Shown piece by piece: positions 549-24,478 of a DNA stretch of 64,000 nucleotides. Numbering within the stretch: position 1 is the stretch's first letter; each line of letters begins with the position of its first letter. The position numbers and the translations under genes are program-made. The DNA is from a virus. The notes beneath the pieces were generated by a model. The model worked only from the letters and a program-made list of their open reading frames with translations. It did no database searches and was not told the origin of the DNA. The stretch is taken from positions 1-64,000 of IMG/VR virus record IMGVR_UViG_3300045988_035487; one strand, given 5' to 3'.

Positions 549-620
549 GCCCCATTACTTCAGTGGTAGAAGAGCAAATTCTAAACTTGTATGGCGTTGG
601 TTCGAGTCCAACATGGGGCA
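549..620 (+). tRNA. putative suppressor tRNA, anticodon CUA (reads UAG)
   Basis: Perfect 7-bp acceptor GCCCCAT/ATGGGGC. D arm CTTC-AGTGGTA-GAAG. Anticodon arm GCAAA-TTCTAAA-CTTGT (U33, anticodon CTA at 581-583, A37). T arm GTTGG-TTCGAGT-CCAAC. The 31-39 pair is an A/C mismatch. Confidence 0.6.
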
Positions 621-622
621 CT

Positions 623-703
623 TGCGGGCGAGTGGAACGGATATACAAACCATCCTGGTCTCATAAGCCACGGGATAGCGGGTTCGACTCCCGCGCTCCG
701 CAA
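623..703 (+). tRNA. tRNA-like, anticodon loop CTCATAA (CAT: Met or Ile2), irregular acceptor and D region
   Basis: T arm GCGGG-TTCGACT-CCCGC. Anticodon loop cuCAUaa at 660-666. The acceptor pairs only imperfectly (TGCGGGC vs CTCCGCA) and the D region is over-long. Confidence 0.35.
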
Positions 704-738
704 CTACAATCATTGTACATACTACATTTTCAGAATGT

Positions 739-804
739 TAAGAAGACAAACAGCAATTTCCTGTATGTTGGCATAAGTAAATGAATCTATTGTCTTCTGA
801 TGAT
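739..804 (+). repeat. conserved tRNA-leader hairpin element, copy 1 (TAAGAAGACAA-ACAGCA...TTGTCTTCTGATGATG)
   Basis: Shares the AAGAAGnC-TACAGCAC 5' arm and the complementary GnCTTCTG 3' arm with 4 other copies. Stem bases covary. Ends 1 nt before tRNA-Ile. Confidence 0.6.
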
Positions 805-879
805 GGGTGTATAACTCAGGTGGTAGAGTAACACGCTGATAACGTGTAAGTCCTTGGTTCAAGTCCAAGTACACCCACA
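805..879 (+). tRNA. tRNA-Ile(GAT)
   Basis: Acceptor GGGTGTA/TACACCC. Anticodon stem ACACG/CGTGT with loop CTGATAA. T loop TTCAAGT. Confidence 0.85.
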
Positions 880-905
880 ATACAACAATTTTCAATAGCT
901 TTGAA

Positions 906-974
906 TAAGAAGTCTTACAGCACGAAAGAAAGTGTTTCATATTTTATGATTTTAATTAAACTAAGAGACTTCTG
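906..974 (+). repeat. conserved tRNA-leader hairpin element, copy 2 (TAAGAAGTCTTACAGCAC...AGAGACTTCTG)
   Basis: Same family. Stem GAAGTCT/AGACTTC. Lies upstream of tRNA-Pro. Confidence 0.6.
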
Positions 975-979
975 TAGTT

Positions 980-1052
980 ATGGGTGTAATTCAGTAGGTA
1001 GAATGCTAGGTTTGGGACCTAGTTGTCGCCAGTTCGAGTCTGGCTACCCATA
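980..1052 (+). tRNA. tRNA-Pro(TGG)
   Basis: Acceptor ATGGGTG/TACCCAT. Anticodon stem CTAGG/CCTAG with loop TTTGGGA. T loop TTCGAGT. Confidence 0.8.
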
Positions 1053-1277
1053 CTCCCCGTGGCATCCAAGAGAGGATGCTGATAATCCCATAATAATAAA
1101 TGTGGACAACTACTCCGTTCGTGAGAATAGAGTAGTTTTAATAAGAACCATAATTAACACAATAATATATAGTTTCACTAAACAATTATCAAATCAACTC
1201 AACAACCAACTCAACAACTTTTAATTTATGATTTGATTAACCTGTTTCATAGTTAAGCCCATAAGTCGTATTGATAC

Positions 1278-21614: not shown

Positions 21615-22552
21615 TGTTTAGATTTCTAAAACGCAATGATTCTGAAGTTATAACTCCAGAAGTGGTTGACGTGCCGGTGATGACTATTCAGTCCAACATA
21701 GCTATGGCTCTTGCTTTATGTATGGAGGAATATCTACGTTCTGTTTCCAAGACATCAGTTGATATTCCTAATAGAGATACATTAGTAAGAGAATACAACA
21801 CGTTGGTTGATGCTGGGCTAGGTAGCTCAAAGAATGCCAGGCTATTACAGGCTAAAATATCTGAATATAATCAGATAGCTCTGGATGCCATGCGCGCTAA
21901 GAACTTATTTAATTTCGTAAAGCGTGCAAGAGAGGTGTTCGGAGAGAGTACTCTTCTGGTTGGCTCTAAACAGTTTGATGAAGTTTGTAAGAAATATAAA
22001 CTTGTCAAAGGTCTACTAAAACAGTACACTGGAATAATTCCTGACCGTAATATCAGAGAAATCATAAAAGTTAAGCGCAAGCTTAATGGTGAAGGACCCA
22101 TGTTCTCTGATTTAGGATTGGGGTATGTTAATGGAGCATATTATTATGTTACAGGTATTAACTACGGATACAGTGACAGTGAAACTATGTTGAACAATCT
22201 GAAGAAATACATAGAATCACACAATCACATAGTTATTGGCCCTGATACAGAAGGCACACTCAGGCTGTCCAGTATAGTTAACAAGAATCCTGGTCTTCCT
22301 GCTGATGTAAAGGGTTTTAGCTACCCTAACATAGTTTCTTTTGATTCTGTTAAGATAAGCAAAAATGAGCTGTTTGTAGCCTGTCCTCCTGGTCAATTAA
22401 ACAACCCAGAGGTTACAATCACTAAGAAGGCAGTAGACCCTATTGTGTACCAGCCTTGTGCTTATGGTATTCTCATTCACAGTATGTGGGGAGAAGAGTC
22501 AGAGGACAAAGTGTTTGAAGAATATAAACGTATTAACAATTTAATGCTATAA
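21614..22552 (+). CDS. hypothetical protein, paralog family member 3 of 3
   Basis: See 16499. The C-terminus YGILIHSMWGEE matches IGIVIVSMWGG. Confidence 0.55.
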   Translation: MFRFLKRNDSEVITPEVVDVPVMTIQSNIAMALALCMEEYLRSVSKTSVDIPNRDTLVREYNTLVDAGLGSSKNARLLQAKISEYNQIALDAMRAKNLFNFVKRAREVFGESTLLVGSKQFDEVCKKYKLVKGLLKQYTGIIPDRNIREIIKVKRKLNGEGPMFSDLGLGYVNGAYYYVTGINYGYSDSETMLNNLKKYIESHNHIVIGPDTEGTLRLSSIVNKNPGLPADVKGFSYPNIVSFDSVKISKNELFVACPPGQLNNPEVTITKKAVDPIVYQPCAYGILIHSMWGEESEDKVFEEYKRINNLML

Positions 22553-22554
22553 TT

Positions 22555-22929
22555 ATGTTTGAGAAAGCATCTAGAATGAAATTGCGTTTTAACACGCAAC
22601 GTGGAGTTCTTTCTGTTGAAGACTTGTGGGATTTACCCTTAATTCAACTTGACAATATTGCAATTGCTCTTAACAAGAAATTGCAAGAGTCTAAAACTGA
22701 AAGCTTCATCAAAACCCGGACTAAGGACACTACCGAACTTGAACTGAAATTCAATATTGCAAAACACATTATTGATGTTAAGTTGCAAGAACAGGAAGAC
22801 CGTCTACTTGAAAGTGAGAAGAAAGCTAAGCGTCAGAAGATTCTTGACCTTATGGCTAAGAAACAAGACGCTGAACTCGAAGGCAAATCTCTGGAAGAAT
22901 TAGCTAAAGAACTTGAAGCACTTAATTGA
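22555..22929 (+). CDS. hypothetical protein
   Basis: 124-aa ORF, charged and helical. Confidence 0.5.
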   Translation: MFEKASRMKLRFNTQRGVLSVEDLWDLPLIQLDNIAIALNKKLQESKTESFIKTRTKDTTELELKFNIAKHIIDVKLQEQEDRLLESEKKAKRQKILDLMAKKQDAELEGKSLEELAKELEALN

Positions 22930-23192
22930 TTATGGACTTTGAGAAAGAAATAAAGAAATGGCAGAAGGTGAACAGTTCTGAAACTAAAGCCCAGCTCTTT
23001 GAAGCAGTAGATTACATCTGCGCTGATGAGCCTAATGGATTAGTAGGAGTAACTGGTTTGCTATTTGATGCCGATAAACTCAAGAGGAGTATCAATGCTG
23101 CGCTTTCCAGGAGAGCGGAAGCTAACGTGGTTACACGTAGATATGGTTTGCGTCAGCAGGTGCTATACTTGATGTACTATGGCGAAGAGTGA
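22926..23192 (+). CDS. hypothetical protein
   Basis: 88-aa ORF. Confidence 0.45.
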   Translation: MIMDFEKEIKKWQKVNSSETKAQLFEAVDYICADEPNGLVGVTGLLFDADKLKRSINAALSRRAEANVVTRRYGLRQQVLYLMYYGEE

Positions 23193-23339
23193 CTATAAGT
23201 GCTCTTGCGCTGGAAGAGGCTAAACTTTAAAGGAAGCATGTAAGTAATACTGTGAGTTATGCTGACAGACCGTCCACGTGAAAAGCCCAGTACGTGATAC
23301 TGGCAAGGGCGGCCGTTAAATCGGAATTGCTTCCTGTAT

Positions 23340-23411
23340 GGTCCCATAGTTCAATGGATAGAACGCTGGTCTACGGAACCTGAAATGGCAGTTCGACTCT
23401 GCCTGGGACTA
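23340..23411 (+). tRNA. tRNA-Arg(ACG)
   Basis: Acceptor GGTCCCA/TGGGACT. D arm GTTC-AATGGATA-GAAC. Anticodon loop CTACGGA (the stem has one U-U). T arm GGCAG-TTCGACT-CTGCC. Confidence 0.65.
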
Positions 23412-23431
23412 CTAACTTAATAAGGAAAGAG

Positions 23432-24034
23432 ATGACTAACTTAGAAATTATTAAAAGATTAAAGACTGCTAAAGACTTGTACGATAAAGATACAAAGCCA
23501 GGTAGTGATAAGAATGGTGGTATGTGCCACTATATGAAGCAAGCATTCAACGGAGTGTTTAAAGAAGGAATACCTCCCTCTTATAATGAATTAGTGGCAT
23601 TAATTCCGGAGTTTAACCCAGAGTTTCTAGGAGGTAATGTCAAACAAGAAGAAGTGGCTAGACTTGTCTTCTGGTGGCCAGTAGATGAGAAGAAACATAG
23701 GCTTGTAGCTTTTGATAAGCTCATCCATTGGTACACAGAAAGAATCAATAAGCACGCTATCTTACTAAAAGCTAAGAAGCTGTTTGAAGACCATTCAGAA
23801 TACTGGGGAATGTGCTTTTGTATCGAGCATGCTATGGCTGGAACCGAACGAGGAATCAACATCTACGATGAATGTGATGTAGTTGCCATGTTCCCCGAGT
23901 TCAATAGAGAGTTTTTAGGTGCGCCTAAAGACAGGTATGGTAAGGCATTTTGGTGGACTCCCGATGACGAGAAGGGTCACAATGCTAGGATTGAAGCATT
24001 TGATAAACTGATTAAGTATTACGAAGGAAGATGA
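23432..24034 (+). CDS. hypothetical protein made of two tandem homologous domains
   Basis: Internal duplication: PEFNPEFLGG...FWWPVDEKKHRLVAFDKLIHWY and PEFNREFLGA...FWWTPDDEKGHNARIEAFDKLIKYY. Confidence 0.5.
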   Translation: MTNLEIIKRLKTAKDLYDKDTKPGSDKNGGMCHYMKQAFNGVFKEGIPPSYNELVALIPEFNPEFLGGNVKQEEVARLVFWWPVDEKKHRLVAFDKLIHWYTERINKHAILLKAKKLFEDHSEYWGMCFCIEHAMAGTERGINIYDECDVVAMFPEFNREFLGAPKDRYGKAFWWTPDDEKGHNARIEAFDKLIKYYEGR

Positions 24035-24396
24035 ACTGGATAAAAAGAATCATGAATAAGTTATTTATTGATAATGAGTCTTATGACATTGAAGAGGACA
24101 ATATCACTATCTCACAAATCAAGCGTAAAATTTACGTAAATGGTAAATTAATATCTGAAACGAATAAGGATAGTGTACATATCAGTTTTACTGGTAATGT
24201 AAAAGAACTTAACTGCAACACATGTGATATTGACGGAGACGCATTTACTGTACATGGTAATAGTGTTAAAGTTAAAGGCAATGTGGGAGGTTCTATAGAA
24301 GCTAACAGTATTGAGGTTGGTGGTAATGTACAAGGAGACATCGATGCTAATTCTGTTAAAATAAAAGGCAGACATACTGGGAGTATTAACGTATAA
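24031..24396 (+). CDS. bactofilin-like (beta-helical polymer-forming) protein
   Basis: Repetitive beta-helix segment VHGNSVKVKGNVGGSIEANSIEVGGNVQGDIDANSVKIKG. Confidence 0.5.
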   Translation: MNWIKRIMNKLFIDNESYDIEEDNITISQIKRKIYVNGKLISETNKDSVHISFTGNVKELNCNTCDIDGDAFTVHGNSVKVKGNVGGSIEANSIEVGGNVQGDIDANSVKIKGRHTGSINV

Positions 24397-24404
24397 CGTA
24401 AAGG

Positions 24405-24478
24405 GGTCTAGTAGCTCAGTAGAATAGAGCGTCCCTCTCCTAAAGGGAAGGTCACGAGTTTGAATCTCGTCTGGACCA
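24405..24478 (+). tRNA. tRNA-Arg(CCT)
   Basis: Acceptor GGTCTAG/CTGGACC. D arm GCTC-AGTAGAATA-GAGC. Anticodon stem TCCCT/AGGGA with loop CTCCTAA. T arm ACGAG-TTTGAAT-CTCGT. Confidence 0.85.

Follow-up and report, generated by a model that had tools for sequence, protein, structure and literature searches.

crAss-like phages of the Zeta group have genomes of 145-192 kb that carry many transfer RNA (tRNA) genes and suppressor tRNAs (PMC7886860). One Zeta clade, referred to as 'clade 8', possesses polA, a GC content of 35-37%, and 20-29 tRNAs, including a Sup-CTA that occurs without suppression (PMC12386605). Most Zeta genomes open with a block of tRNA genes, and Bacteroides is the predicted host for the clade, a host prediction taken here from the literature (PMC12386605). 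In T5-like phages, tRNA arrays have been proposed to evade tRNA-targeting defences through mutations in the anticodon loop (PMC10264068). The present analysis concerns a tRNA gene block at 549-24479 of IMG/VR virus record IMGVR_UViG_3300045988_035487, of which positions 1 to 64,000 (hereafter, the window) form the left part of the genome of a Zeta-group crAss-like phage from the human gut. The block contains 22 solid tRNA genes and two tRNA-like genes, all on the + strand, and the window also encodes a CCA-adding enzyme, a polynucleotide kinase-phosphatase (Pnkp), and an RNA ligase. From this inventory, the block is best explained as a near-complete decoder set for A/U-rich codons that probably sustains phage translation, with its tRNAs completed by the phage CCA-adding enzyme and protected by Pnkp and the ligase.

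tRNA genes were called with ARAGORN, in default mode and in a relaxed mode with introns allowed, and with the Rfam model RF00005 at its gathering score of 29 bits, supplemented by a sensitive mode on positions 1-26000. ARAGORN makes 23 default calls in the 64-kb window, every one within 549-24479 and 22 of them on the + strand. With Rfam, 20 genes pass the gathering score (43-69 bits, E <= 8e-6), and the sensitive mode adds Ser-GCU (53.8 bits) and 17380-17462 (38.5 bits). Neither caller detects a tRNA gene elsewhere in the window. These results agree with a preliminary description of the locus, which had counted about 24 tRNA genes and had named a far smaller number of predictor calls as the outcome that would speak against it; this outcome did not occur. 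Its isotype list is correct throughout, down to the G-1 of tRNA-His and the Ala-like gene, which carries a G3.U70 pair. The genes are as follows.

549-621, + strand: amber-suppressor tRNA (CUA), 73 nt, A73; ARAGORN, Rfam 62.7 bits
623-704, + strand: non-canonical tRNA(CAU)-like gene; relaxed ARAGORN only, Rfam partial 3' match below threshold
805-878, + strand: tRNA-Ile (GAU); ARAGORN, Rfam 69.3 bits
980-1053, + strand: tRNA-Pro (UGG); ARAGORN, Rfam 64 bits
1278-1350, + strand: tRNA-Cys (GCA), U73; ARAGORN, Rfam 51.3 bits
1433-1507, + strand: tRNA-Lys (UUU); ARAGORN, Rfam 63.4 bits
1761-1835, + strand: tRNA-Asn (GUU), canonical allele; ARAGORN, Rfam 62 bits
1949-2022, + strand: tRNA-Trp (CCA); ARAGORN, Rfam 63.8 bits
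2452-2539, + strand: tRNA-Ser (UGA), class II; ARAGORN, Rfam 52.8 bits
3635-3708, + strand: tRNA-Arg (UCU); ARAGORN, Rfam 67.9 bits
4213-4286, + strand: tRNA-Ala (UGC), G3.U70, extra base between the acceptor and D stems; ARAGORN, Rfam 43.2 bits
4901-4975, + strand: tRNA-His (GUG), encoded G-1 (4901) opposite C73; ARAGORN, Rfam 59.7 bits
5274-5346, + strand: tRNA-Phe (GAA); ARAGORN, Rfam 67.9 bits
7959-8047, + strand: tRNA-Ser (GCU), class II; ARAGORN, Rfam 53.8 bits (sensitive mode)
8395-8468, + strand: tRNA-Glu (UUC); ARAGORN, Rfam 58.2 bits
9674-9747, + strand: tRNA-Glu (CUC); ARAGORN, Rfam 57.6 bits
10051-10125, + strand: tRNA-Asp (GUC); ARAGORN, Rfam 61.9 bits
10183-10266, + strand: long-variable-arm tRNA(UGU), 84 nt; ARAGORN, Rfam 57.8 bits
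13547-13619, + strand: tRNA-Gln (UUG), U1-A72; ARAGORN, Rfam 60.5 bits
13715-13789, + strand: tRNA with anticodon CAU (elongator Met, initiator, or Ile2); ARAGORN, Rfam 66.9 bits
15805-15887, + strand: tRNA-Leu (UAG), class II; ARAGORN only, kept in nearly all related loci
17380-17463, + strand: tRNA-like gene with 18-nt anticodon loop AATTTTAGTATGCGCACA; Rfam 38.5 bits, ARAGORN with introns
23340-23412, + strand: tRNA-Arg (ACG); ARAGORN, Rfam 60.8 bits
24405-24479, + strand: tRNA-Arg (CCU); ARAGORN, Rfam 64.9 bits

Though they fall under default thresholds, 623-704 and 17380-17463 are real, structurally conserved RNAs. The single antisense ARAGORN call, Arg-tcg at 7986-8062, overlaps the class II Ser-GCU gene, lacks Rfam support, and is regarded as an artefact; Asn-att (5011-5102) and two reverse-strand 'intron' calls appear under relaxed ARAGORN settings only, are absent from the Rfam matches, and were set aside. 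Together, the tRNA genes occupy 7.7% of the 24-kb span and have a GC content of 53%, compared with 37.6% for the window. The first thirteen lie inside 4.8 kb, and the others are 0.1-5.9 kb apart.

None of the 24 genes encodes a full CCA, so the 3' end of each product needs a CCA-adding enzyme. In all 24, the base directly 3' of the discriminator is C (tRNA-Glu(CUC) has CC), which is very unlikely by chance at the base composition of the window. This universal C may reflect 3'-end processing. The preliminary description had placed a CCA-adding enzyme, a polynucleotide kinase, and an RNA ligase at 53.6-58.0 kb, and all three are confirmed with their catalytic motifs.

53621-55009, + strand: ATP-dependent RNA ligase, Rnl2/Rnl5-like; phrog_968, E 8e-42; motif I KVHGTS
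55677-56453, + strand: short (258 aa) class II tRNA nucleotidyltransferase of the CCA-adding type (predicted); Pfam PolyA_pol, E 1e-16; phrog_24229, E 2e-64
57084-58004, + strand: bifunctional Pnkp of the T4 type; Pfam AAA_33 and HAD_PNKP, E 5e-25; P-loop GSGKST; phosphatase motif DMDAT

The nucleotidyltransferase contains motifs A (GGKIRD...DVD), B (RRD), and D (DDPLR), as in class II enzymes, and its sequence points to the CCA-adding type; the NCBIfam CCA models all score below cutoff because the protein is so short. Pnkp combines a P-loop with a DxDxT motif, and the RNA ligase has the lysine of motif I, as in repair systems of the T4 type. At its N-terminus the ligase has an OB fold with a weak Pfam PHA02142 match, and it matches TIGR02306 at E 1e-6, below the cutoff of that model. 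No aminoacyl-tRNA synthetase, release factor, or tRNA-modifying enzyme occurs among the scanned open reading frames (ORFs) of the window (most > ~100 aa).

In phage T4, Pnkp and Rnl1 repair tRNA-Lys that has been cut by the host anticodon nuclease PrrC, and some of the T4 tRNA genes lack CCA and need a nucleotidyltransferase. The present locus resembles the T4 cluster in its association of tRNA genes that lack CCA with a bifunctional kinase-phosphatase and an RNA ligase. It differs in that the ligase is not Rnl1 but resembles the OB-fold Rnl5/Rnl2 type, that this phage brings its own CCA enzyme, and that the array is three times larger. No mention of the Pnkp/RNA ligase pair was found in the texts of PMC7886860 and PMC12386605. 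The parts list fits both codon adaptation and escape from anticodon nucleases. Of the preliminary suggestion that the phage both supplies and repairs tRNAs, the components (tRNA set, CCA enzyme, Pnkp, and ligase) are right; it needs amendment with regard to the suppressor and to the Gly and Tyr tRNAs.

Assignment of the source to the Zeta group is based on genome size, polymerase type, GC content, a group I intron and HNH endonuclease in nrdD, and the tRNA block. The DNA polymerase PolA of the window is 99.3% identical to that of MT835470.1, an unannotated 117-kb record from human faeces, and 39-47% identical to those of crAss001, IAS virus, cr111_1, and other crAss-like phages. Window positions 43935-64000 align with the first 19.4 kb of MT835470.1 at 97.7% identity, starting at the first base of that record, which extends a further 98 kb beyond the overlap; the composite genome is at least 161 kb. 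MT835470.1 contains no tRNA genes. Its reverse-strand late module (~31.9-110.6 kb) holds portal, large terminase (TerL), and major capsid genes, as identified with PHROGs, along with tail-fibre genes and ORFs of 2282 and 2971 codons, and its TerL matches crAss-like phages only, at ~30% identity. The long ORFs of the window are all on the + strand, and the tRNA block, with which the early half of the genome begins, is on the same strand as the replication genes. The hallmark genes of the Zeta group (TerL, portal, major capsid, and PolA) are recognizable by homology, judged from sequence without a tree, and the genome has the size of the group (145-192 kb), the tRNA block at the start of the forward module, and introns. 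With its gut origin, PolA, ~37% GC, genome above 145 kb, Sup-CTA without suppression, phage CCA-adding enzyme, homing endonucleases and introns, and ~28 tRNAs, it matches the clade of PMC12386605 more precisely than the Zeta group at large. The preliminary description was right about the components but missed this identity, for which such a block is already published (PMC7886860; PMC12386605). As for nrdD (44600-47671), the gene is split into ORFs 44600-45739 and 46634-47671, between which are a group I intron at 45601-45827 (Rfam 49.3 bits, narrowly short of the cutoff, 50; E 3e-11) and an HNH endonuclease ORF at 46057-46629.

Unlike the published blocks, the one on this contig is truncated at its left end. 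Bases 1-47 are a Nextera transposase adapter, with GTCTCGTGGGCTCGGAGATGTGTATAAGAGACAG at 14-47, that recurs at the ends of many unrelated phage records; the start of the contig is thus an assembly artefact, and phage sequence begins at 48. Apart from this adapter, positions 1-25000 have no DNA match in the GenBank phage collection. Relatives were examined at 53 loci around homologues of ORF 10737-11669 and at 31 loci around homologues of ORF 206-511. In relatives that are 95% identical over window positions 48-1200, genes for Arg-GCG, Leu-CAA, Tyr-GUA, and Gly-UCC lie within the 7 kb upstream. The preliminary description had correctly reported Val, Gly, Tyr, and canonical Thr tRNAs as absent from the window, but Gly and Tyr are missing because the contig is truncated. 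The window also lacks a 3.35-kb segment of close relatives (L004 15793-19145; junction near 17304-17310) in which a second tRNA(CAU) and tRNA-Leu(UAA) lie alongside about four ORFs. Once the upstream genes and those of this segment are counted, the complement of the clade is ~28 tRNAs, in agreement with the table of PMC12386605.

The genes of the phage favour codons ending in A or U; AGA, with a relative synonymous codon usage of 3-4, is the dominant Arg codon and is read by Arg-UCU. Under strict wobble rules, the tRNAs of the window read 60-63% of the sense codons of the phage, and 72-74% when five tRNAs of close relatives are added. Each four-codon box covered by the window (Pro, Ala, Ser, Thr, and Leu) has a single tRNA with U34, and a U34 tRNA is found for Gly in close relatives and for Val in more distant ones. 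The share of codons left uncovered would be much smaller if codons ending in U are also read by U34. The array also serves codons that the phage itself seldom uses, namely CGN (Arg-ACG), AGG (Arg-CCU), and that of Glu-CUC, which suggests a broad decoder set rather than a few patches.

These observations can be assembled into a mechanism. The block would be co-transcribed with the interleaved small ORFs and the replication genes, the tRNAs would be excised by host RNase P and RNase Z, and their 3' ends would be completed by the phage-supplied CCA-adding enzyme. The mature set, ~28 tRNAs with those outside the window, would serve each four-codon box with a single U34 tRNA and each two-codon box with a single tRNA and so could read most codons of a 37%-GC genome. 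Phage translation would then rely less on the tRNAs of the host, whose pool may suit the phage badly or may be depleted or cleaved during infection. Where host anticodon nucleases break tRNAs, Pnkp would heal them and the RNA ligase would seal them, as in T4, and the suppressor would be kept functional without decoding phage genes. The scheme unites the two ideas of the preliminary description, codon-usage compensation and escape from anticodon nucleases. Expression, charging, repair activity, and benefit to the phage are inferred in it, on the basis of the gene inventory and of what is known of T4 and T5.

Several points weigh against this decoder-set mechanism. The clade has no canonical Val tRNA, and the reading of U-ending codons by U34 is an assumption. 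Against the NCBIfam DraRnl (Deinococcus-type) model, the RNA ligase scores 27.5 bits, far from the cutoff of 151, and it has no sequence relative in the PDB. With regard to the suppressor, TAG ends 19 of 127 early-strand genes by a simple ORF-based call (15%; TAA 74, TGA 34) and none of the 45 late genes of MT835470.1 (TAA 41, TGA 4), a difference with p = 0.004. Since TGA is depleted in the late genes too (p = 0.012), a general preference for TAA explains the lack of TAG equally well. Back-up stops are not closer after TAG than after other stops, the median distance being 8 codons compared with 6 for TAA and 3.5 for TGA.

Three genes of the block depart from the canonical tRNA form: the tRNA(CAU)-like gene, the long-arm tRNA(UGU), and the big-loop gene at 17380-17463. 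The preliminary description had listed them as 'CAT-like', type II (UGU), and 'intron-like'. These calls are real; a point it did not make is that compensatory changes keep the structures, and by this criterion the three appear to be maintained non-canonical tRNAs and not decayed copies. The 623-704 gene folds with stems of 8 bp (acceptor), 4 bp (T), 6 bp (anticodon), and 3 bp (D); the D loop has 14 nt and the variable loop 5 nt, and the allele of the window has two single-base bulges. Among close genomes, this slot is occupied by one of three alleles, which are a canonical 72-nt tRNA(CAU), found in 9 of 21 genomes, and two versions of the non-canonical fold. Non-canonical alleles A and C are 100% paired, with 4 compensatory pairs in the D, anticodon, and T stems, and manual re-registering of the 3' strand yields 2 further compensatory pairs in the inner acceptor stem. 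tRNAs with such 8/4 stems are known in bacteria and in phage tRNA clusters (Mukai et al. 2017, PMC5389517). Like the allo-tRNAs and (8/4) tRNAs, 623-704 and allele A have an 8-bp acceptor stem and a 4-bp T stem, the inner pairs being manually re-registered, as well as a lengthened anticodon stem; unlike them, 623-704 has no long variable arm and bears the anticodon CAU (PMC5389517).

In the tRNA(UGU) gene at 10183-10266, the variable arm consists of a 3-bp stem (GAG/CTC) capped by a GAAA tetraloop. It is paired as in class II tRNAs, while the anticodon UGU is outside the Leu, Ser, and Tyr anticodons of that class. Among seven variants, drawn from two clades, pairing is 100%, and each of the 3 variable-arm pairs shows compensatory change (GAG/CTC versus TCC/GGA, with GCAA or GTAA loops). 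A canonical 74-nt tRNA-Thr(UGU) occupies the same slot in 6 of 21 close genomes, and the two alleles have in common G1-C72, C2-G71, and U73. The long variable arm on an anticodon other than Leu, Ser, or Tyr recalls the V-arm tRNAs of nematodes (PMC3333845), but in contrast to those and to the allo-tRNAs, 10183-10266 keeps the normal 7/5 stem split and these Thr-type bases.

Among relatives, added variable arms also occur on tRNAs for Asn (GUU), Met (CAU), His, Trp, Cys, and Lys, and each of these tRNAs retains the discriminator base usual for its isotype. In some close relatives, the Asn slot (1761-1835 in the window) holds an 88-nt long-variable-arm allele; long-arm loci include L007:1418-1505, L008, L016, L057, L058, and L070 for this slot, L034 for Trp, Cys, and Lys, and L021:3603-3686 for His. 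The long-arm tRNAs of relatives share the D-loop motif AGTGGTCGA and have short variable-arm stems with GNRA-like loop caps. With at most 60% identity to the Tyr, Ser, or Leu tRNAs of the phage, they did not arise from these by recent copying and a shift of anticodon. The GenBank phage collection holds no DNA match to the long-arm tRNA of the window. A scan of bacterial genomes identified 84-85-nt Thr-UGU genes with the same D arm and a GNRA-capped variable arm on chromosomal contigs of Cytophagales (L088:4796-4880, L089, L091, L092, and L093; Spirosomataceae, Hymenobacter, and Fibrella), and a further one on a contig of a low-GC metagenome-assembled genome (L090:2447-2531). This suggests that the long-arm Thr-UGU type is natural in some Bacteroidota. 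In the literature searched, no bacterial Thr tRNA of class II-like form was found described.

In the big-loop gene at 17380-17463, the acceptor, D, and T arms are normal, and the 18-nt loop is closed by an anticodon stem of 5 bp; with introns allowed, ARAGORN reads the gene as Val-cac, its anticodon loop bearing a 13-nt insert. The sequence is the same in 16 relatives. Its orthologue in the more distant L021 has 5 compensatory pairs in the acceptor and T stems and a nearly invariant loop, with only three distinct sequences known in all. An intron-permissive ARAGORN scan of 84 loci detects the gene in the closest clade and L021 only. The possibility that it is a decayed orthologue of the Lys-CUU tRNA found nearby in relatives was rejected, as the two sequences are unrelated.

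The CAU and Thr alleles are found in every combination across 21 genomes with ~99% identity in a neighbouring protein. It may tentatively be proposed that the block contains interchangeable cassettes under diversifying selection, with canonical and non-canonical forms alternating in at least three slots (CAU, Asn-GUU, and Thr-UGU); the unusual shapes could then be escape forms or decoys directed against host tRNA-targeting nucleases, or the big-loop RNA could be a splicing substrate of Pnkp and the ligase. The three non-canonical shapes may be new, the block and the suppressor being already published for the clade. An open-access literature search on long-arm tRNAs in phages yielded no description of such alleles; no mention of a variable arm was found in the text of PMC7886860, and PMC12386605 was not searched for variable-arm terms.

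The same alleles bear on the strongest of the other explanations, in which counter-defence comes first: the array would replace host tRNAs cleaved by defence nucleases, the non-canonical alleles would be escape variants or decoys, and Pnkp and the ligase would repair the rest. A full heal-and-seal toolkit beside the CCA enzyme, the maintenance of non-canonical tRNAs by compensatory changes, and the independent assortment of alleles with the same anticodon among the 21 genomes, as expected under an arms race, all argue for it, and phage tRNAs that evade anticodon nucleases have a published precedent (PMC10264068). As in the T5-like arrays of that study, a large, near-complete set occurs in a lytic phage and codon compensation alone is insufficient, but the oddities here are architectural (variable arm, 8/4 split, 18-nt loop) and take the form of alternative alleles. 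However, no host nuclease is known, and none was searched for; the long-arm Thr-UGU tRNA, found on chromosomal contigs of Cytophagales and hence in free-living Bacteroidota, may be an ordinary tRNA type of that phylum; and neutral recombination among co-circulating strains could produce the mixing of alleles. On balance, counter-defence as the first function is considered somewhat unlikely.

Pure compensation for codon usage, by which tRNAs would have been acquired only for codons that are common in an AT-rich phage and rare in its host, is improbable. The phage does have 37% GC, and AGA, AAT, GAT, and TTA are served by tRNAs of the array or of close relatives. Nevertheless, the set is near-complete and not selective, as it includes the phage-rare codons read by Arg-ACG, Arg-CCU, and Glu-CUC, and compensation would leave the suppressor, the repair enzymes, and the non-canonical alleles unexplained.

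The block could also be a collection of passenger cassettes, shuffled by homing endonucleases and recombination with little benefit to the phage. The preliminary description had noted an HNH nuclease in the block, which is present, although there are two such ORFs and not one, both free-standing.

2068-2475, + strand: HNH endonuclease ORF, free-standing, 135 aa, between tRNA-Trp and tRNA-Ser; phrog_10822, E 3e-23; weak Pfam HNH_3
11704-12453, + strand: HNH/homing-endonuclease-like ORF, 249 aa; phrog_559, E 2e-57; Pfam DUF4379/DUF723

Consistent with passengers are these two ORFs, the mosaic of alleles, and the 3.35-kb segment that brings tRNA-Met(CAU) and tRNA-Leu(UAA) to close relatives and is absent here. 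Set against them, the ORFs of the segment include no recognizable homing or other endonuclease, cloverleaf stems are kept by compensatory substitutions, and the order of the tRNA genes (Ile Pro Cys Lys Asn Trp Ser Arg Ala His Phe Ser Glu Glu Asp Thr Gln Met Leu ... Arg Arg) holds across relatives whose identity in the neighbouring protein ranges from 99% to ~61%. A passenger origin is thus very improbable. The arrays of the distant (~61%) relatives reach 33-36 genes per 20 kb, including Val, two Gly, Tyr, and Lys-CUU.

The first gene of the array, the suppressor Sup-CUA, has a conserved A31.C39 mismatch, and orthologues of it occur in three clades that are more divergent. The cloverleaf is preserved in four divergent orthologues, with 11 covarying pairs, which indicates that the suppressor is maintained. 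It is not a copy of the phage tRNA-Gln, with which it shares 40% identity only; its best match is Arg-UCU at 60%. A search for its targets covered the window and MT835470.1, ~15-25 kb of the genome lying outside both. Reading TAG as sense joins no pair of ORFs of at least 60 aa within the window, and neither coding density nor ORF joining gives a signal with TAG, TGA, or TAA as sense in the window or in MT835470.1. Read in the standard code, the large late ORFs of the latter are all intact, those for portal, TerL, and major capsid among them, and TAG as sense changes nothing in them. The sole TAG-joined ORF of MT835470.1 was rejected as a recoded gene, since it consists of two paralogous genes in tandem, both of which have an ATG start.

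The late genes of MT835470.1 are thus not recoded by the suppressor. With no in-frame TAG target in the window or MT835470.1, it is not part of the codon-supply story, and to this extent the earlier account of the array as a codon supply has to be narrowed. Most likely, the suppressor acts on host mRNAs ending in UAG or represents a standing pre-adaptation to recoding. A suppressor without recoding has been reported for the clade, and has been explained by incipient recoding or by action on host translation (PMC7886860, PMC12386605). In gut phages with recoded stop codons (code 15; PMC9523058, bioRxiv 10.1101/2021.08.26.457843), a tRNA(CUA) suppressor likewise occurs in a crAss-like phage, but in-frame TAG was not found in this phage or MT835470.1. 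That Sup-CUA is a code-switch device, reassigning TAG (code 15, usually Gln) in late genes with the array supporting recoded translation, is essentially excluded for the sequence in hand: the gene is well formed, conserved, and first in the array, and recoding of TAG is common among the Beta, Delta, and Zeta crAss-like phages (PMC7886860; PMC12386605), but no ORFs are joined, the late ORFs are intact, the matching published clade has no suppression (PMC12386605), and Sup-CUA is no paralogue of the phage tRNA-Gln.

Near the start of the array, more distant relatives (L030:2885-2979, L031:2927-3021, L038:2973, L036:4657, and others) have a tRNA-like gene of 92-95 nt to which ARAGORN can assign no anticodon (its calls include '???(ttag)', Ser-aga, and Ala-cgc). 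The gene shows an extra hairpin as well as a conserved TTCTAGG that contains CTA, and it could be an unrecognized amber suppressor in a clade reported to have none.

Other genes lie among the tRNAs and beyond them. ORF 12458-13525 (355 aa), inside the block, encodes a truncated adenylosuccinate-synthetase-like protein, whose PDB matches are bacterial PurA and whose PHROG label is 2-aminooxy adenylosuccinate synthetase. A PurZ/Z-genome reading was rejected, as NF038379 scores 19.3 bits against a cutoff of 300 and the best models are those of PurA, also below cutoff. Among or just after the tRNAs, at 5910-7871, 14077-15534, 18136-18609, 24031-24396, and 27746-28387, are genes for a 653-aa SPFH/Band 7 protein, an AAA+ ATPase, an RNase H, a bactofilin-domain protein, and a ferritin-like protein. 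The region 3' of the block encodes helicases, DnaB, a Toprim primase, a PD-(D/E)XK nuclease, an anaerobic ribonucleotide reductase, a dUTPase, a DNA ligase, a family A DNA polymerase, and ThyX.

The tRNA array in itself is ordinary, as large phages often carry such arrays. The suppressor provides a clean natural case of a suppressor tRNA that is kept without recoding, which bears on the origin of alternative genetic codes and on the use of suppressors against the host. If the non-canonical tRNAs are indeed escape forms or decoys, they would constitute a structural route of tRNA-level counter-defence that was not found described for phages in the literature searched. Near-identical genomes that swap canonical and non-canonical tRNAs represent a ready-made experiment on why phages carry tRNAs, and they raise the question of whether tRNA architecture alters sensitivity to defence or the amino acid that is loaded.

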